DNA of 64,000 nt from Candidatus Brocadiia bacterium. GTDB taxonomy: Bacteria; Planctomycetota; Brocadiia; CAIUPP01. This document shows, in pieces, positions 2,605 to 57,763 of the stretch. Made by a program: the position numbers and the translations under genes. The notes below the pieces were generated by a model. That model made no database searches, was not told the DNA's origin, and was given only the letters and a program-made list of their open reading frames with translations. Each line of letters begins with the position of its first letter. The first letter of the stretch is position 1. The DNA lies in contig JBEKCB010000018.1 of assembly GCA_050015075.1 (NCBI GenBank), positions 33,751 through 97,750 of the forward strand, in the 5' to 3' direction.

Positions 2605-3954
2605 TCAGCGCGGATTCCGCTTCGGCCCGCCGACGAGGAACAGGTACAAGTCCATGACGTTCGTGCCGGTCGGCCCGGTCATCAGCAGGTCGCCGAGCGG
2701 CTGGAAGAAATGGTACGAGTCGTTGCGGGCCAGGAAATCCGCCGCGCTGAGGCCGAGTCCAGCGGCGCGGTCGCACGTCGCGCCGTCGGCCAGGGCGCCG
2801 GCCGCGTCGGTCGGGCCGTCGGTCCCGTCGGTGCCGCCGGCGAGGATGGCCACGCCTTCCAGCCCGCGCGCGGCGAGGGCGGCGGCGAGCGCGAACTCCT
2901 GGTTTCGGCCGCCGAGCCCGCTCCCGCGGAGCGTGACGGTGGTCTCGCCGCCGGCGATCAGGCAGGCCGGCGGCGCGACGGGCCGGCCGCTCGCCAGCGA
3001 CTCGCGCGCGATGGCCACGCACACGCGCGCCACTTCGCGGGCCTCGCCCTCGATCGTGGACGAGAGCACCAGCGGGCGATAGCCGAGTTCGCGGGCCTTC
3101 CGGGCGCAGGCGGCGACGGAGGCGGCGTTGTTCGCGATGAGCAGGTTGCGGACCTTCGCGAAGATCGGGTCGCCGGGCTTCGGCGTCTCGGGTTTCGCAC
3201 CGGCCGCGCCGGCGCGCAGATGCTCCAGCACGCCTCGCGGCGCGCGGGACTCGATGCCGTACTTGCTCAACACGGCCAGCGCGTCGGCGAAGGTGGTGCT
3301 GTCCGGCGCCGACGGCCCCGACGCGATGGCGTCGAGCGGGTCGCCGACGACGTCGGAGAGGATCAGCGCGACGACCTCGGCCGGCTGCGCCGCTTGCGCG
3401 AATCGCCCGCCCTTCAACTGCGACAGATGCTTGCGCACGGTGTTGATTTCGCGGATGTCCGCGCCGCACGCCAGGAGCGCCTGCGTGACCGCCTGCTTGT
3501 CCGCCAGCGACACGCCTTCAACCGGCAGCGGCATCAGCGCCGAGCCGCCGCCGCTCAGGCACAGCAGCACCAGGTCGCCTGCGCCGGCCGATTCGAGGAT
3601 CTTGACGATCTCGCGCGCGCCGCCCAGTCCGGCTTCGTCCGGCACCGGATGCCCGGCCTCATGGACATGAATCCGCCGCAGCGGTTTCTCCGCGGCGGCC
3701 GACTTGACGTTGATCCAGCCGCCGGCGATTCGGTCGCCGAGGATTTCCTCCAGCGCGCCGGCCATCCGCGCCGACGCCTTGCCCGCGCCGACGACAAAAA
3801 TATTCCGCACCTTCGTCAGGTCCCAGGAGTAATCGCCGAGCCGCAGCTTCCGCCCGCGCCGGACCACGTGGCGCCGGACCGCGTCAACCGGGTCGGCCGC
3901 CGCGAGCCCGGCCTTGAAGATTGCGAGGATATCCCTGCGCGCGCGCTTGTCCAT
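2605..3954 (-). CDS. Glycerate 2-kinase (MOFRL/TtuD family)
   Basis: GAGKAS, EAGHPVPD, SGGGSAL, KGG, SDVVGD, GGETTV, GGRNQE, TDGTDG, TGPTGTNVMD. Confidence 0.92.
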   Translation of the reverse strand: MDKRARRDILAIFKAGLAAADPVDAVRRHVVRRGRKLRLGDYSWDLTKVRNIFVVGAGKASARMAGALEEILGDRIAGGWINVKSAAAEKPLRRIHVHEAGHPVPDEAGLGGAREIVKILESAGAGDLVLLCLSGGGSALMPLPVEGVSLADKQAVTQALLACGADIREINTVRKHLSQLKGGRFAQAAQPAEVVALILSDVVGDPLDAIASGPSAPDSTTFADALAVLSKYGIESRAPRGVLEHLRAGAAGAKPETPKPGDPIFAKVRNLLIANNAASVAACARKARELGYRPLVLSSTIEGEAREVARVCVAIARESLASGRPVAPPACLIAGGETTVTLRGSGLGGRNQEFALAAALAARGLEGVAILAGGTDGTDGPTDAAGALADGATCDRAAGLGLSAADFLARNDSYHFFQPLGDLLMTGPTGTNVMDLYLFLVGGPKRNPR

Positions 3955-48408: not shown

Positions 48409-51339
48409 TCAGCGAGCCGCGCCGGGGTTGAGCTGCAGCGCTTTCTCGGCCTGGCGCTTCATCTCCCTGGCGCGCTCGACCAGCGTCGGACTGGGATTAT
48501 CCTTGATGATGCCGTCACAAGTCTCTATCACTTCGTTCGTCCTGACGCCGTTCTTCAAGGCGTTTTCGGCGCTGATCATGGGGACGTCGTACCGGCAGAG
48601 CTTGTTCTTGACCGGATTGAGCAGTTCCCACTCCTGCTCCTCGTACGCATTGCGCGCCTGATGAGAGAGGGCCTCGTACCGGGCTCGTATTTCCTTCGAG
48701 ACGTCCACGTCGTCGAGCGTCATCAGCGTCTCGATCGCGCAATACCGCGTGGCCGGACCCGGACTCTGGATAAGCCCCACGAGCACCTTGCCCGCCTCGA
48801 ACCTGTCGAACCGCGCGAGGCCGGCGCACACCAGCGCGGCCACCGTCCGCGAGTACCGCTGCTCCGCGGGCGGCCGTGCGCCCGCTTCCGCAAGAGCCGC
48901 CGGCGGCGGAAAGCGGTCGCCCGCGTCGGACTGCATGAGCAGGCGCGCCACGGACGACAGGATCTCGAAGGCCAGCGGCGATTGCTCTTTTTCGATCCCT
49001 TTGCACAGGCTGTAGAGCGTTTCCGGGTCGGGTCCGAGAGACTGGCCGACGAATGCCCGAACATCGTCCTGCAGTTCCTTGAGGTTTCCCTCGGTGACCA
49101 CCGTCACCGCCGCGTCGACCCGCTGGCCGGGCGTACCGCTGCGGATCAGCCACTCGAGCACCGTCTGCGCCGTCTGCGGCGGAAACATCAGGCTGGCGCG
49201 GGGCTGGCGCACCTCGGAGAACGCTTTCACCGCATGCTTGTCAATCAGGGCATTCACTTCCGGCCCGGGCCGGCCCAGGTCAATCAGCGCGCAAGTGGCC
49301 GCCTGGACGGACTCCGGCGAATGGTCGGCCGGCGTCGCGACCCACTGGAGGAAATCCTTCTGGTTCTCCTCCTTCGCCTGGCGCGCCAGGCAGACCATTG
49401 CCGCGTCGCCGAAGGGGCCGCGCAGGGCGAGGAACGGGCCCGCCCATTCCGGGCTGCTGCGTTCTTCCTTGAGGACCGCGACCAGCGCGTCCGCCGAGGG
49501 ATGCGGCAGCCGGTCCGGCGTTGCCGTCACGACCCCGGCGATGGCCGGGCCGCCGCCGAGTCGCAGGATATTCCGGCAAGCGGCGGCGGTCGCCCCCTTG
49601 TCGGCCTTTCCGTCCCAGAGCGTTTGCCAGTCCGCCTCGGGCGCGGCCAGGAGCCCGGCCGCCAGTTTGCCCGCCTCCGCTGCATCGGCGTGCAGGTCCA
49701 GGTCATCATATTGGCAGAAGCCGGAGAGAAGGCAGGCTCGGTCCGGGCCCATCTGGCCGGTGAGATGGATTTCGCGGAGCTGCTTCGGACGGTGGAACGG
49801 CGGCGCCGCGCCGGTTTCGGCGCCCTTGTCGGAGAGCGCCGCGTCCGCCTCGACGGGCCCGCCGATCATCTCGTGCGTCTGGCCGCCGACTTCCCAGACG
49901 ACCCGCACGATCGAGATGCGCAGCCCGCAGGGCAAGGGGTCCGCCTGGGCATCGTCGCTGGGGACCGCGTACCAAATCTCCGCGGCGCCGGGGATGAATT
50001 GCGCGTTTATCGTCAGGCCGCCGCTCACCAGTTTCTCCCAGAGTCTCACCGGCGACGGCGGCGCCATCGCCGGCCCGCGGCCCGCCGCGCGCGGGCCACG
50101 GCGTGAGAAATTCGGCCCCGGTTGGCCTCGCCCCGGCCGGCCCGGCCGAGACGGCATCAGCACCGGCGGAGTCCCGCCCTCGCTGAAATTGAACCTGGCC
50201 CACGCCGGCGCGGTGCTGAAGAAAACCTTGAGGCGGCTGCGCAGCTCTCCGGGATTCGCGGCGCCGGTGGACTGCCCCGCCTCGGCCGGCGCCAGGCCCT
50301 TCTCGCGAAGTATGGCGGCCACGCCCTCATAGACCGTCGCCCGGCTCGCCGAGCGCATCTCTTGAATGCCGGCGTCGGCGTCGTCCTTGTCACGGATGTG
50401 CAGGTTCGCTGCCTCCAGCATCAGGTCGCCGGTCGGGGTGAGGACCGGCATCGGCGGCGCGGCGGCCCCCGCCGAAGCTTCGACCACTTCCACCTCGACG
50501 GGCGCCTTGGCGGCCAGGGCCTGGGCGGCTTCCTTCAGCGCCGCCGGGAACTCAGGCGCCGCCTCCGGCTGCGGCGCAGGCTGGGTCACGAGAATCGGCT
50601 GCGCTCTTACGCGCGGCTTCCTGCTGCTGAAGCCGATGCTGAGCGCGACGATGACGACGATGAGCAGCAGCAGGCCGCCCGCTACGCCGACCAGAGTCCG
50701 CAGCGGCTGCCGCCGTTTGCCGGACCCGCCCGGAGACGCCGGCGCGGCGTCCGAGGCGACGGCATAGCCGGACTTGTCGGCGGCCGTCTTAATGCGGAGT
50801 TCCTTGGCTGCGGCCGACTGGCCGCGGACGAGCGCTTCGGGCGAAGGCGCCCGATAGGCTCCGGCGCCTGTTTTGGCCGCCTGGACCGCCCCGCTGTGCT
50901 CGCGTGCGGCCTCTTCGGCGAGTATCTTGAAGAGAGCGTCCTTGTCCTCCGGCCTGTCTCCGCCCGCCGGCGCGACCGGGGACGGCGCAGCCGGCGGCAC
51001 AGGGCCTTGAGTAACGGCATAGCCGGGCTCGCCGGGGGCTGCTTCGGGCAAGGGCGCAAGCTCGGCTTCGACGTTCGCTTTGGCGGCCCGGGCGACGTCC
51101 GCCTGGCGTTGCTCGCGCGCGGCCTCTTCGGCAAGCGCCCTGAGAAAAGCGTCCTGACCGTCCGGCGCGTCTCCGCTCGCCGGCGCGACCGGCTGAGCGG
51201 GCTCCGCCGCCGTTTGCGGGGCCTTATTCGGAACGCGCATCCGCTTGTCGCAGGTAGCGCACTGAATCAAGAGACCTTCGCAACCGTCCGGAACGCTCAG
51301 AATCTTTCCGCAGCCTTCGCACTTCACGTTGATGGACAT
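48409..51339 (-). CDS. Large hypothetical protein: N-terminal Zn-ribbon, low-complexity linker, TM, helical repeat C-terminus
   Basis: CEGC...CATC, internal LAEEAARE duplication, hydrophobic TM segment. Confidence 0.75.
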   Translation of the reverse strand: MSINVKCEGCGKILSVPDGCEGLLIQCATCDKRMRVPNKAPQTAAEPAQPVAPASGDAPDGQDAFLRALAEEAAREQRQADVARAAKANVEAELAPLPEAAPGEPGYAVTQGPVPPAAPSPVAPAGGDRPEDKDALFKILAEEAAREHSGAVQAAKTGAGAYRAPSPEALVRGQSAAAKELRIKTAADKSGYAVASDAAPASPGGSGKRRQPLRTLVGVAGGLLLLIVVIVALSIGFSSRKPRVRAQPILVTQPAPQPEAAPEFPAALKEAAQALAAKAPVEVEVVEASAGAAAPPMPVLTPTGDLMLEAANLHIRDKDDADAGIQEMRSASRATVYEGVAAILREKGLAPAEAGQSTGAANPGELRSRLKVFFSTAPAWARFNFSEGGTPPVLMPSRPGRPGRGQPGPNFSRRGPRAAGRGPAMAPPSPVRLWEKLVSGGLTINAQFIPGAAEIWYAVPSDDAQADPLPCGLRISIVRVVWEVGGQTHEMIGGPVEADAALSDKGAETGAAPPFHRPKQLREIHLTGQMGPDRACLLSGFCQYDDLDLHADAAEAGKLAAGLLAAPEADWQTLWDGKADKGATAAACRNILRLGGGPAIAGVVTATPDRLPHPSADALVAVLKEERSSPEWAGPFLALRGPFGDAAMVCLARQAKEENQKDFLQWVATPADHSPESVQAATCALIDLGRPGPEVNALIDKHAVKAFSEVRQPRASLMFPPQTAQTVLEWLIRSGTPGQRVDAAVTVVTEGNLKELQDDVRAFVGQSLGPDPETLYSLCKGIEKEQSPLAFEILSSVARLLMQSDAGDRFPPPAALAEAGARPPAEQRYSRTVAALVCAGLARFDRFEAGKVLVGLIQSPGPATRYCAIETLMTLDDVDVSKEIRARYEALSHQARNAYEEQEWELLNPVKNKLCRYDVPMISAENALKNGVRTNEVIETCDGIIKDNPSPTLVERAREMKRQAEKALQLNPGAAR

Positions 51340-51557
51340 TGCCCTCTCCGGTCTCACGCTGGACAGATTTTACCACGTTTGGCGCGAGTTTTCCCAATCT
51401 CGCGGGCTTCTGCAGAAGCGCCGAGCCGCGCCCGCGCGATTGTGCCTTGACTGGCCGTGCTCGCAAGGTAGAATGGAAGTGGTCACGGCTTGCGGGGCGC
51501 GAGCCGGCCGCGAATGGGAATAGTCCGATCCTCCAGATTGCAGAAAAGGCGGCACCG

Positions 51558-52451
51558 ATGCGCAGGCTGTTGCATGCAGGGCTATGGCTGCTGATCGCGG
51601 CGGCGGGTTTCGGGCCCGCGCCGACGGCGCTTGCGGCCGCGGGCGACGAGCCGGTGCAGACGGCGTTTTTTGCGGACGCGTCGGCCGTGGCTGCGGGGCA
51701 GCCGTTCAAGGTCGGCGTGCTCTTCCGCATCGCGCCGGAATGGCATATCTACTGGAAGTATCCCGGCGACGCGGGGCTGGCGACGGAGGTGAAATTCGAA
51801 TTGCCGAAGGGCTTCGTCGCCGGCGAACTCCAGTGGCCGCTGCCGCAGTCGTTCGTCCAGCCGGGCGACGTGGCCGGCTACGGTTACACCGGCGAGGTGC
51901 TGCTGACGGCCCAGATCACACCGCCCAAAGACCTGCGGGTCGGAGAGGAGTTCGCAATCCGCGCCAAGGCGTCGTGGCTCAGTTGTCATGACGTCTGCCG
52001 GCCGGGCCGCGCGGAGCTGAACGCCCGGCTCGCCGTCGCCGCGCAGCGCGAGCCGGCCAACGGGACGCTCTTCGGAAAGTGGGCCGCGCGGCTGCCGCGG
52101 ACGGAGGAGTCGTGGACCGCGGCCAAGCATTTGCGCAGCGTGGTCGCGAACGCCGACACGCTGCCGGCGTCCGCCGAGACGAAAATCGCTATCGTGATCG
52201 TATGGGGGGCGAAGCCCGCGAAGGTCGAGTTCTTCCCGGCGCCGACGGAGGCGGTGCTCACGGACAAGCCGTCGGTGAATACCGCCGAGGACCGGACCGC
52301 GATCGTGATGACGGCGCGCCGCTCCGGCGTCGGCGCGGCGGACCGTCTCGATTGCCTTGTGGTATTCACTCTGGCGGACGGGGAGCGCGGCGGATTTCCG
52401 ATCCAGCTCAATATGCCCGCCGGAGAAGCCGCCGCTCCGTCCACGCCATAG
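51558..52451 (+). CDS. DsbD N-terminal-like (protein-disulfide reductase) domain protein
   Basis: Signal peptide, WHIYWKYPGDAG, WPLP, GY, WLSC...C.PG. Confidence 0.85.
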   Translation: MRRLLHAGLWLLIAAAGFGPAPTALAAAGDEPVQTAFFADASAVAAGQPFKVGVLFRIAPEWHIYWKYPGDAGLATEVKFELPKGFVAGELQWPLPQSFVQPGDVAGYGYTGEVLLTAQITPPKDLRVGEEFAIRAKASWLSCHDVCRPGRAELNARLAVAAQREPANGTLFGKWAARLPRTEESWTAAKHLRSVVANADTLPASAETKIAIVIVWGAKPAKVEFFPAPTEAVLTDKPSVNTAEDRTAIVMTARRSGVGAADRLDCLVVFTLADGERGGFPIQLNMPAGEAAAPSTP

Positions 52452-55000: not shown

Positions 55001-55858
55001 CTACGGTCGAGCCGGTTTGGCATTCGCCGGCGCAGCCGCCGGCTCGGGCGTTTTCTCGTCGAGCGAGTAGCTCGTGCCGAAGTCCTTCTTCTGCAATTGC
55101 CCCAGCCGGAACGCGGCCTGCTTGCGCGTGAGCAGCGACTTGCCCCTCTTCGCGGCCAGCCAGTAGTAGTGCGCGGCGTGCTCGTATTCGCTCAAGTCGT
55201 TGTCGCAGATCTGCGCGGCGCGGTACACCGCGTCGTGCGGGGTCTCCGGGTTCGCCAGGTACGCGAGTTTGTAGAGCTTGACCGCGCGGGCCGGTTCGCC
55301 GACGACGCTGCTGGAGTAAATCTCTCCCAGCGCGAACGCGGCCGAGTCCACCGCCGTGCTGTTCGGATACTGGATCAGGATCTGCTGGTACTGGACGGCG
55401 GCCTGCTTGTAGCGGTCGCCGCGATTGAACGGGTTGATGGCCGTGCGCGTCGAGTCGGCCTCCTTGAGCAGTTGCGTGGCCTCGGGGATTTCGGTCGTCG
55501 CGGAAAGCTCCGGCAGCCGGTCTTCCCAGTGGACATATTCGAAGTGCCGCGACTCGGCCTCGTCCTTGCGCTCCTTGCGGACCTGGATCAGGCGCTCCGC
55601 GTTGCCGCGGCTTTCGTAATAGGTCTCCAGCGCCGCAAGCTTGGCCTCGTAGGCGGCACGGGCGCGCATGGCATCATCGGCGATCTTCTGCTCCTCGCCG
55701 GCGGTGAGCGTCTCGGCCAGGATTTCGGCCTTGTGCCGGGCGCAGTATTTCTCGCCGTCGGGGATCTGCTGCAGGCACAACGGGCAGACCGCGGCCCAAC
55801 TCACCGCGCACACCAGTAGCGCGGCGCACAGCGATGCAACCACTTTTCGCAACGTCAT
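55001..55858 (-). CDS. Exported TPR-containing protein with N-terminal CxxC/CxxH motif
   Basis: Signal peptide, CPLC...YCARH, Y..I...YPNS...DSAAF.LGEIY. Confidence 0.75.
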   Translation of the reverse strand: MTLRKVVASLCAALLVCAVSWAAVCPLCLQQIPDGEKYCARHKAEILAETLTAGEEQKIADDAMRARAAYEAKLAALETYYESRGNAERLIQVRKERKDEAESRHFEYVHWEDRLPELSATTEIPEATQLLKEADSTRTAINPFNRGDRYKQAAVQYQQILIQYPNSTAVDSAAFALGEIYSSSVVGEPARAVKLYKLAYLANPETPHDAVYRAAQICDNDLSEYEHAAHYYWLAAKRGKSLLTRKQAAFRLGQLQKKDFGTSYSLDEKTPEPAAAPANAKPARP

Positions 55859-56125: not shown

Positions 56126-56290
56126 GGCCACCCCGTACCTGCGACAAACCACCCCGGCTCCCATTTCCCATCATGCGCGCGAGGGGCGCGCGTGGGCGCA
56201 TCCTCTTACAGAACAGCAGCTTGGCCCGGGTTCTACCTGCTCAGGGTCGTCGAAGGCCCTGCAAGAGCGGGAAATCATCCGAAATGGACT

Positions 56291-56318
56291 TTGACAACGG
56301 CCGCTTGGCGGGTACAAT
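56291..56318 (+). promoter_or_regulatory. sigma70 promoter for the lipoprotein gene
   Basis: TTGACA-16 nt-TACAAT. Confidence 0.6.
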
Positions 56319-56387
56319 GCTCCTGTGGGGAGACAACCGCCCTGAGATGGACGGCCGTATGGCAGATTTCGGCTTGAAAGGAACGTC

Positions 56388-57017
56388 ATGCGCGTGAGCA
56401 GGCGGATCACGAGATGCATGTTCGTAATTGCGCTCGGGCTGGGACTCACCGCCTCTTCGGGATGCGCCTACTTTCATAACCGCTGGCACGACTTCTCTCA
56501 GATGGCGGACATCGGAGTCACCTGGTCGGACAAGAATCAATTCGTCCTCTACTCGAGCTTCGAGTCCATTCTTCCCCTCGGCTACGCCCATTTCGACGGT
56601 CACTTCGCCGGATGGGGAGGCGGCCAGTTCGGCGCGACCCGCAATTCCCTCGACGCGTGGGGAGTCCTCGTCTGGGGACATGAGAAAGTGGGCTGGGAGG
56701 ACTTCGACGTGGACGACCCCTCCACTCTGTTCACGCAGACCGTGGGGTTGATCGGCATGCCCGTGGGGCTGTTCACCGATTCCAATCCCAACTACGTGCC
56801 GTCTTGAATGCATGTCATTCATCTGGGCCGGTTCGGCCTGGTCGCCAATTTTCGCTGGTTCGAGGTGCTGAACTTCGTTGTGGGCTGGACGACAATCAAT
56901 CTCTCGCAGGACGACGGGAAGAAATTCGGACATTGGATCTGGCTGCCGGACCGGAACCCGCCGTGCGAGCCGCCCGGCACGGCTGCCCCGACGGCAAATG
57001 AGCGCGCGACATTCTGA
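56388..57017 (+). CDS. Lipoprotein with an in-frame UGA at 56805-56807 (candidate selenoprotein)
   Basis: Lipobox ASSGC; ORFs 56388-56807 and 56808-57017 are in the same frame and separated only by TGA; hairpin with a GUU loop 23 nt downstream. Confidence 0.7.
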
Positions 57018-57086
57018 GTTCGGGAGTTCGGCGGGAGTTCGAAGGACACACTGGAGGAGTTCGGGGGATACACGATTTATCCCCAG

Positions 57087-57462
57087 GTCGGCGTCATCGG
57101 CTTCACCGCCGAGGGAATAGACCACGGCCTCCTTGCCGCTGCGCTCGGCCACGAATGGGCCGTCGGCCTGCGCCACGGCTGCTTCTGCGCGCATCCCTGC
57201 GCCATGCGCCTCCTCGGCGTCGGCGCGGCGGAACTCGAGAATTTCGCCCGCAAGGCCGAAGTCAACGACCACTCCGGTTTCCCCGGCCTCCCGCGCATCA
57301 GCGCAGGCCTCTACAACACGCGCCAGGAGGCCGACTGCGTCGCGGAGACCATCCGCGATCTCCTCGACCGCGGCCCCCGCGAGCGCTACGTCCTCGAGTC
57401 CCACAGGCGAATACGTCCCCGAAAGCGGCCCCATCTGGCCCGAAGAATGGTGCCCGCTCTAA
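57087..57462 (+). pseudogene. C-terminal fragment of a class V PLP aminotransferase (cysteine desulfurase/Sec lyase-like)
   Basis: GVIGF...GIDH.LLAA.L..E..VGLRHGCFCAHP and RIS.GLYNT..E.D; frameshift near 57400 before the TGEYVP tail; N-terminal PLP domain missing. Confidence 0.75.
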
Positions 57463-57505
57463 CCTGGAATCCCTATCCCGTAATTCCGGGTTCGCCGCAA
57501 AATAA

Positions 57506-57536
57506 TGGCTGGCCACCCAGGACTCGAACCTGGAAC
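57506..57536 (-). other. tRNA 3' fragment (T-arm plus acceptor-CCA, probably tRNA-Gln); likely att-site remnant
   Basis: Minus strand GTTCCAGGTTCGAGTCCTGGGTGGCCAGCCA; no D or anticodon arm or matching 5' acceptor strand upstream. Confidence 0.7.
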
Positions 57537-57763
57537 GCTTAATAATGAGGGCCGCGTGCCTGATGAAAAAGTCACGCCTTGACAGGAGTATATCGGCAGC
57601 GGGCCTCCGGTCTGCACGATTTCACGGGAATTGCAGTCTTTTGCAGGCCAGGCGCTCTCACCCGATGGCTTTTTCAACTGGCCCACTTTCCCAAGGCATT
57701 CAGTTACGAACCCGCTTCAATCAATCCCCTTGATCCCGTTATCCCGTCCAAGCCATTCGCTCT

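Follow-up and report, generated by a model that had tools for sequence, protein, structure and literature searches.

Bacterial selenoprotein genes decode an in-frame UGA codon as selenocysteine (Sec) with the help of an RNA element lying close behind it. The classic example is fdhF of E. coli, which carries its selenocysteine insertion sequence (SECIS) within the gene and is decoded through the SelB/SECIS pathway. The bSECISearch criteria for such elements are an apical loop 16-37 nt from the UGA and a G in the first two loop positions. Families in which Sec alternates with cysteine (Cys) have been defined by comparative genomics, among them those treated in PMC13188914 and 10.1101/2022.07.06.499078, and the table of PMC13188914 includes thioredoxin-, peroxiredoxin- and DsbA-like selenoproteins with UxxC or CxxU motifs. 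Exported selenoproteins of the substrate-binding (lipo)protein type are described by Haft and Gwadz (10.1101/2022.07.06.499078), so that an extracytoplasmic location has precedent in that work. A different kind of comparison is offered by LIC13411 of Leptospira, described in PMC9354625 as an outer-membrane protein that binds VE-cadherin. The locus considered here lies in a stretch of 64,000 nucleotides from contig JBEKCB010000018.1 of Candidatus Brocadiia bacterium, referred to below as the window. Positions 56388-57017 of this window very probably form one gene that is decoded through UGA as selenocysteine. Comparison among relatives points to a single reading frame, a column that alternates between Sec and Cys, a hairpin that is conserved, and a genome equipped with the Sec machinery.

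Two open reading frames (ORFs), 56388-56807 (139 aa) and 56808-57017 (69 aa), lie in the same frame, and their sole separator is the TGA at 56805-56807, around which the local reading is ...PNYVPS-TGA-MHVIHLGRFGLV.... When this TGA is read as U, the joined frame comprises 209 residues and the site becomes PNYVPS-U140-M-H142-V-I-H145-LGRFGLV. The start codon ATG 56388 is preceded at 5-13 nt by the purine-rich run GAAAGGAA; direct reading of the 15 nt before ATG 56808 finds no Shine-Dalgarno-like purine run. A first-pass annotation, made from the letters of the window, had proposed two ORFs joined in one frame by a single TGA, a second ORF without a ribosome-binding site of its own, a lipoprotein of about 209 aa, and a hairpin at 56823-56841 whose loop begins with GU 23 nt after the UGA. 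All four descriptions agree with the sequence as re-examined. The features of the gene are the following.

56291-56318 (+): promoter-like TTGACA-16 nt-TACAAT, 11 of 12 consensus matches, about 70 nt before the start codon; a candidate promoter by its consensus match (one such site found, against a shuffle mean of 0.2)
56375-56383 (+): possible Shine-Dalgarno run GAAAGGAAC, 5-13 nt before ATG 56388, its role presumed
56388-57017 (+): whole gene, 209 codons plus terminal TGA, with UGA140 proposed as selenocysteine
56388-56465 (+): signal peptide and lipobox (...TASSG-C26), the Cys26 codon TGC lying at 56463-56465
56805-56807 (+): in-frame TGA, proposed Sec codon (residue 140), at the Sec/Cys column of homologues
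56808-57014 (+): C-terminal 69 codons, with conserved N154, D162-F163, G166, D171 and D175-D176
56811-56822 (+): codons H142-V-I-H145; all 53 aligned members keep H145 (56820-56822), and H142 varies
56823-56841 (+): SECIS-like hairpin of 8 pairs, stem CUGGGCCG/CGGCCUGG, apical loop GUU
57015-57017 (+): TGA, the true stop, not followed by a SECIS-like hairpin

The strongest indication of what the internal TGA encodes comes from homologues. A protein search returned six relatives, four of which (90, 60, 69 and 53% identity) are each annotated as exactly 139 aa; the two longer ones (184 and 220 aa) read through with a Cys aligned to U140 and carry the downstream motifs as well. DNA was retrieved for 15 genome loci, from assemblies labelled Brocadiia, Brocadiaceae or Planctomycetota and one labelled Verrucomicrobia, and for 70 metagenome loci; a profile was built and the codon at the column was read. 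This first set gave 100 domain hits, with TGA in 18, TGC in 59 and TGT in 8, while 13 were cut off before the column and the two other cases were a Met paralogue and a frameshift artefact. The addition of 18 stretches from a sample of the phylum brought the collection to 92 unique homologous genes, in which the column holds TGA 31 times, TGC 54 times and TGT 5 times (Cys in 59), with single cases of ATG and TTC. Homologues with Trp, Arg or a variable residue at this position had been named at the outset as the outcome that would speak for a simple nonsense mutation or sequencing error; what the unique genes have there is Cys or TGA.

The site consensus across the family is [C/U]-x-[H/K/R/...]-x-x-H-[LVI]-G-x-x-G. 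In 53 aligned members the invariant positions are H145, G150, the lipobox pair G25-C26, R32, D35, D41 and several Gly, and the conserved Cys positions are C26 and column 140 alone, C192 not being conserved. The U-x-H-x-x-H motif highlighted by the first-pass annotation is present in the window protein, but as a family feature it holds for its second His alone, since H142 is often replaced by K, R or another residue. In one metagenome copy (L043, about 2986-3423, frame 0) the similarity ends immediately ahead of the column (...SNPH, followed by unrelated residues), which may reflect a frameshift or an assembly error near the contig end; a Cys-form paralogue adjoins this copy.

The hairpin behind the TGA provides a second line of evidence. 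In the window it consists of CTGGGCCG (56823-56830), GTT (56831-56833) and CGGCCTGG (56834-56841), forming 8 pairs of which two are G-U, and its stem begins 15 nt and its loop 23 nt after the UGA. For comparison, the best bulge-free hairpin of each unique gene was scored with a loop start 12-31 nt after the column codon. In all 31 TGA forms the hairpin energy falls between -12.8 and -8.3 kcal/mol, whereas 57 of the 59 Cys forms are weaker than -8.3 kcal/mol and the Cys-form mean is -2.8 (Mann-Whitney p = 1.9e-13, with kin not independent). There was no overlap between the two forms in the first data set (16 against 53). From the UGA to the loop start the distance is 23 nt in the window clade, 18 nt in the majority of the other clades and 21 nt in a single form with an extra Pro codon, and a G stands within the first two loop positions of all 31 TGA forms (GUU, UGU, GGC, GGU, GGG). 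The spacing and loop G required by bSECISearch are thus found in every TGA-form hairpin, and a comparable stem is found in 2 of the 59 Cys forms.

Pairing is preserved where the sequence changes. The hairpin type with 18-nt spacing has 168 of 168 cells paired over 21 sequences, with double changes at two pairs (G:C to A:U or C:G; A:U to G:C); its covariation score was reached by none of 500 shuffles, and slid controls pair in 19-59% of cells. The window's own type has 72 of 72 cells paired over nine clade members, and its closing pair changes from G:C to A:U in two of them. Behind the terminal TGA at 57015 the best hairpin has -1.4 kcal/mol, compared with -10.9 behind TGA 56805. Its retention in all TGA forms and its compensatory changes suggest that the hairpin goes with the TGA.

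The sequence downstream of the TGA also behaves as coding sequence. Over the 42 codons after the TGA in eight window-clade members, the ratio of nonsynonymous to synonymous substitution rates (dN/dS) is 0-0.74 and lies below 1 in all 27 computable pairs, dS being saturated in one further pair. The window differs from its relative L021 in this part by synonymous changes only (dN 0, dS 0.20), and what follows the TGA can be aligned with the C-terminal parts of homologues in the Cys form. These patterns argue that the 42 codons are protein-coding and under purifying selection. In a maximum-likelihood tree of the 53 members the window falls within an eight-row clade (support 100/98) that consists of Sec forms throughout, and this clade spans about 1.3 substitutions per site, which suggests that the TGA has been retained for a long time. 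Three changes of the Sec label are needed on the tree, at least two of them forced by well-supported branches; one row labelled 'cys' in it, L045_978, has Met at the column. If the locus were instead a pseudogene, cut short at residue 139 by a nonsense mutation and decaying beyond it, the short annotations would be accounted for, as gene callers record relatives as hypothetical proteins of 129-139 aa. However, the eight-row clade retains the same TGA at identities as low as about 52%, two or more further clades have it as well, and the frame downstream stays open with dN/dS below 1, and decay is accordingly a hardly credible explanation.

Independent sequencing bears on the reality of the TGA itself. 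For 18 runs with the label peat or wetland metagenome, the contigs contain half or more of the words sampled from the window. Two DNA runs, neither marked as a possible source, yield contigs that cover 56732-57100 and 56606-56923 with zero differing letters, TGA included. Two RNA-library contigs cover 56453-56597 and 56445-56716 only, so that the TGA is not reached, and DNA carry-over is possible in them. An error of sequencing or assembly that created the TGA would have to recur in the contigs of the two other DNA runs and at the same column in 30 further unique genes from other assemblies; nothing was found in its favour, and its probability is close to negligible.

The genome of the window, 93.6% complete, carries the machinery for Sec. 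The first-pass annotation had pointed to selA, selB, selC and selD as genes to look for, and all are present, clustered on contig C13 within about 14 kb (G000 contig C13:3632-17124; L010, L013, L001, L002). The matches are selD (364.8 bits), tRNA-Sec (60.9), selA (448.3) and selB (340.5), all above their cut-offs, and ARAGORN calls the tRNA as tRNA-SeC with anticodon TCA (UCA). The open frame around selD encodes 545 aa, compared with a 311-position model, and may include a fused domain.

TGA forms co-occur with SelA. Among named genome assemblies, SelA occurs in four of five with a TGA form (all but G005, discussed below), as against one of five with Cys forms only. In an even sample of 401 genomes from the phylum, with the family called at an E-value of 1e-10 or better, 31 genomes hold the family. 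SelA is present in all nine with a verified TGA at the column; of the other 22, 16 have SelA and six do not, and the copies in these six are without internal TGA (Cys forms). A single taxonomic family accounts for five of the six, and an internal TGA is likewise absent from its 20 scored copies. Several flagged stops were rejected as Sec sites and excluded from the count of TGA-form holders: in G257, G225 and G317 the TGA is a true stop of distant copies without the Cys, G206 and G344 have Cys at the column and a TAG as their true stop, and in G299:C101 the TGA stands before the start codon.

These data also bear on read-through that does not insert Sec, whether by near-cognate insertion of Trp or Cys or by lineage-wide reassignment of UGA. 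Such an explanation gains from the fact that the comparative data indicate read-through and a Cys-like requirement, not the identity of the inserted residue. It is countered by the use of TGA as a terminator, for the gene ends at TGA 57015 and relatives also end at TGA, and the selA, selB and selD matches have no internal stops, which indicates that UGA is an ordinary stop in the window genome. The restriction of TGA forms to SelA-bearing genomes (nine of nine in the phylum sample) and the position of their hairpins at the spacing expected of a SECIS also argue against it, and it is considered improbable.

Several observations weigh against decoding as selenocysteine or limit the force of the evidence for it. 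Residues other than Cys also occur at the column in the wider superfamily: of the best 150 representatives, 110 reach it, and these have Cys in 92 cases and another residue (S, V, A, G, F, L or I) in 18. Within the window, which has 65.8% G+C, 43 of 1459 TGA trinucleotides (2.9%) are followed by an equally good hairpin, 31 of the 43 also with a G early in the loop, and the single-sequence fold of 56805-56860 gives z = -1.34 against shuffles, not significant alone. Taken by itself, the window hairpin would be only mildly unusual, and the support for its reality is comparative. A scan of 56750-56900 against Rfam by E-value gave no SECIS match and a single chance microRNA hit (E 1.8). Most stem pairs never vary (four of eight in one hairpin type and seven of eight in that of the window), and they lie in conserved codons (H-L-G-x-x-G-L), so that protein constraint explains part of their conservation. 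Two Cys-form paralogues from Sec-using genomes have stronger hairpins in the same place (-15.5 and -12.7 kcal/mol); neither has a G early in the loop, and both genomes also hold Sec forms. These are the Cys copy of L110 ('...DPACVHYLHLGFVG...') and L116 ('...KPACKHYLHLGWVG...'), whose hairpins may be relics of a recent change from Sec to Cys or a by-product of the peptide motif. One assembly (G005, 2.9 Mb, completeness not given) holds a TGA form with no selA, selB or selD found; it also gives none of the selD-related hits obtained from all 14 control genomes, and the missing genes are for this reason provisionally attributed to an incomplete assembly. The functional proposal set out below is drawn solely from the residue pattern, namely a lone Sec, an invariant His five residues on, invariant Asp and Arg, and a lipoprotein signal.

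A further point of this kind is that the TGA of the window clade is always followed by ATG, so that a stop-start arrangement is formally possible there. The locus would then be a split gene, producing polypeptides of 139 and 69 aa by stop-start coupling at UGA-AUG, which subsequently assemble. The ATG recurs in all nine unique window-clade members, and purifying selection downstream would also suit a separately translated peptide. Yet ATG 56808 is without a Shine-Dalgarno-like run, in 14 of 30 unique TGA forms the TGA is followed by a codon unable to initiate translation (AAG, ACC, ACG, ACT, CGA, CGC, CTC, AGG), and the break would fall exactly on the column that is Cys in 59 unique relatives. 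Since a split gene also leaves unexplained both the TGA-linked hairpin and the confinement of TGA forms to genomes with SelA, it is regarded as very improbable.

The sequence of events proposed under decoding as selenocysteine is a prediction from these patterns as regards Sec insertion itself, lipidation, cellular location and all chemistry. Translation would start at ATG 56388, and at UGA140 the hairpin 56823-56841, acting as a bacterial SECIS, would recruit SelB with Sec-tRNA(Sec), leading to the insertion of selenocysteine. Translation would then continue to TGA 57015 and end there, where no such hairpin follows. The precursor would be exported and lipidated at Cys26, and the mature product would be a beta-rich envelope lipoprotein with a single-selenol functional centre at Sec140, helped by His145. 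As the window protein has no conserved partner Cys, this centre would not be a site of the CxxC/UxxC type. A redox or nucleophilic selenol is a serious possibility for the role of Sec140, and a soft-metal or chalcogen ligand is possible as well; a structural or cross-linking selenylsulfide seems unlikely.

The N-terminus of the protein, MRVSRRITRCMFVIALGLGLTASSGC, combines a positively charged n-region with a hydrophobic stretch ending ...SSG-C26. Together with the lipoprotein-like signal MRVSRRITRCMFVIALGLGLTASSG-C26, whose G25 and C26 recur in all 53 aligned relatives, it points to lipidation of C26 and a probable envelope location. In Pfam no family matches the window protein at E-values up to 1 and nothing is common to the 53 members, and NCBIfam release 20, whose models include recently described selenoprotein families, gives no match above cut-off; the absence of resemblance to any recognised selenoprotein family, remarked on in the first-pass annotation, therefore extends to these two collections. 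Below cut-off, the NCBIfam model NF047817 (LIC13411 family adhesin) is hit by 40 of the 53 members at an E-value of 0.1 or better, the best being 6.1e-8. Scores are 12-32 bits (window protein 12.3, best member seen 31.9), far under the 150-bit cut-off, so membership in this equivalog was rejected and the similarity is treated as distant.

An AlphaFold2 model built from the 53-sequence alignment is confident (predicted local distance difference test, pLDDT, 86.3; predicted template modelling score, pTM, 0.75) and shows one helix after the lipobox followed by long beta-strands, one of which (140-155) begins at Sec140. Foldseek found nothing in the PDB at an E-value of 0.001 or better, the best VIA-align wide match has Z 2.9 over 73 residues with a root-mean-square deviation of 3.4, and a profile search of PDB sequences gave a chance hit alone (E 0.97). 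The ESM Atlas model of a natural Cys-form relative matched only Planctomycetota hypothetical proteins and one Spirochaetota 'putative lipoprotein' cluster (template modelling score, TM, 0.70). A profile search of 1.84 billion cluster representatives found 1321 with E-values no higher than 0.001 and 220 with E-values no higher than 1e-10, these superfamily clusters being defined at 50% identity, and the database names of the proteins are all 'hypothetical protein'. Of the best 150 representatives, at least 11, as counted by eye, terminate exactly one residue ahead of the Sec/Cys column. The family thus appears to be large, without a name and of Planctomycetota, with entries listed in databases as truncated hypothetical proteins.

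Sec and Cys forms coexist within genomes. The window genome has a Cys-form paralogue at contig C3:198652-199152 (...AMQ-C-NKIV-H-IGW...), and a distant third paralogue (L108, G000 contig C29:26214-26426, E 2.1e-5) is without the Cys/His site and has a long C-terminal extension. Locus L110 (1-8200) holds six tandem paralogues in 8.2 kb, the column being TGA in four of them and Cys in two, and several sampled genomes have at least eight scored family copies. A sister subfamily contains two in-frame TGAs. The extra one precedes the family-wide Sec column by 20 codons (19 in L099) and is part of a loop insertion, C-x-G-[PA]-[TG]-U. Its loci are as follows.

L109 (= L030), 750-860: two-TGA locus
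L033, about 3388-3450: two-TGA locus
L099, about 3370-3435: two-TGA locus
L089: two-TGA locus

The extra TGA has its own hairpin of 7-8 pairs with the loop GGC or GGGGA, which differs in sequence between members, and five representatives end at this first TGA site, as judged by eye. The C-x4-U loop of this subfamily is a possible Cys-Sec redox pair. Longer forms also occur: a Cys-form member opens a 972-codon frame in L031 (2872-5787), which suggests a fused C-terminal extension in some lineages, and P0091 (696 aa) is long as well.

None of the ORFs next to the window gene is found again beside its relatives, and all-against-all clustering of the flanks found no neighbour common beyond close kin, so that gene context gives no functional lead. 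The antisense ORF 56241-57434 (-), of 397 aa, spans the whole gene, matches no family and has apparent homologues that only mirror the sense gene; most likely it arose spuriously, as an ORF of high-G+C DNA. After the stop, and in the same frame, the open stretch 57078-57542 (+) has a weak likeness to the C-terminal 60 positions of PF00266 (E 0.0082, below cut-off), the aminotransferase class V family of the cysteine desulfurase / selenocysteine lyase superfamily. This stretch probably represents the remnant of a gene, of which the close relative L036 has a more decayed version. About 4 kb upstream, the ORF 51339-52451 (+) contains the DsbD N-terminal thiol:disulfide interchange domain (PF11412, E 1.6e-17), with no link to the gene implied. 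The upstream neighbour 55001-55858 (-), of 285 aa, has an N-terminal hydrophobic stretch, a CPLC...C...H zinc-ribbon-like motif and weak tetratricopeptide repeat (TPR) matches (E 0.018), and is not conserved beside relatives.

The family was not found described in the literature searched, which included term look-ups in the 2026 review PMC13188914, deep-Sep (PMC12013277) and BSepDB (PMC13326102), with the BSepDB family table and the Haft and Tolstoy paper outside the comparison. Its status as a new selenoprotein family of Planctomycetota appears well supported by the comparisons above, the recoding itself being of a known type. A broader and more doubtful proposal, offered tentatively, is that the gene is the first recognised member of a large superfamily of Planctomycetota envelope lipoproteins, with a fold unmatched in the PDB and a Sec/Cys-His centre performing undescribed extracytoplasmic selenium-dependent chemistry, some genomes having mixed tandem arrays of Sec and Cys forms and one subfamily having two Sec residues, each with its own SECIS. 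If true, this would indicate a selenium-dependent layer of cell-envelope biology in Planctomycetota of anoxic peat and sediment, a phylum little covered by selenoproteome surveys. If the TGA is decoded as Sec, then independently of this broader proposal the entries of 129-139 aa that public databases list as truncated 'hypothetical proteins', amounting to dozens of clusters, would be full-length selenoproteins. The list of selenoproteins, made up mostly of cytoplasmic redox enzymes with the thioredoxin fold, would gain an exported lipoprotein with neither a partner Cys nor a clear solved fold. Genomes with Sec and Cys paralogues in one array, and Cys-only lineages without Sec machinery, would constitute a natural experiment on what Sec provides outside the cytoplasm, and the three hairpin sequence types with compensatory changes are potential test cases for models of the bacterial SECIS.

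Compared with known systems, the gene combines a familiar decoding signal with an unfamiliar protein. LIC13411 appears to be the only named relative, and a distant one. The window protein resembles its family (NF047817) in length, the profile having 210 positions, and in an N-terminal lipoprotein-type signal; the similarity is weak but repeated and collinear, lying mostly in the last 28 residues and once in the N-terminal 70. The alignment of the Cys-form relative's Atlas model to a Spirochaetota lipoprotein cluster leads to the phylum of LIC13411 as well. As the hosts are environmental Planctomycetota, the role of a VE-cadherin adhesin cannot carry over. With the thiol/selenol oxidoreductases the protein shares the replacement by Sec of a conserved, presumably reactive Cys, and in the sister two-Sec subfamily, as distinct from the window protein, the C-x4-U loop could form a selenylsulfide. 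Unlike those enzymes, it has no second conserved Cys, and its beta-rich model has no clear match among solved folds. It also differs from catalogued selenoproteins in being without a CxxU, UxxC or CU motif or a thioredoxin-like fold, and its family differs from theirs in forming tandem arrays that mix Sec and Cys paralogues. In its proposed decoding, by contrast, the locus resembles other bacterial selenoprotein genes, with a UGA aligned to Cys in homologues, a stem-loop immediately 3' with a G early in the loop, sel genes in the genome, and an annotation truncated at the UGA.

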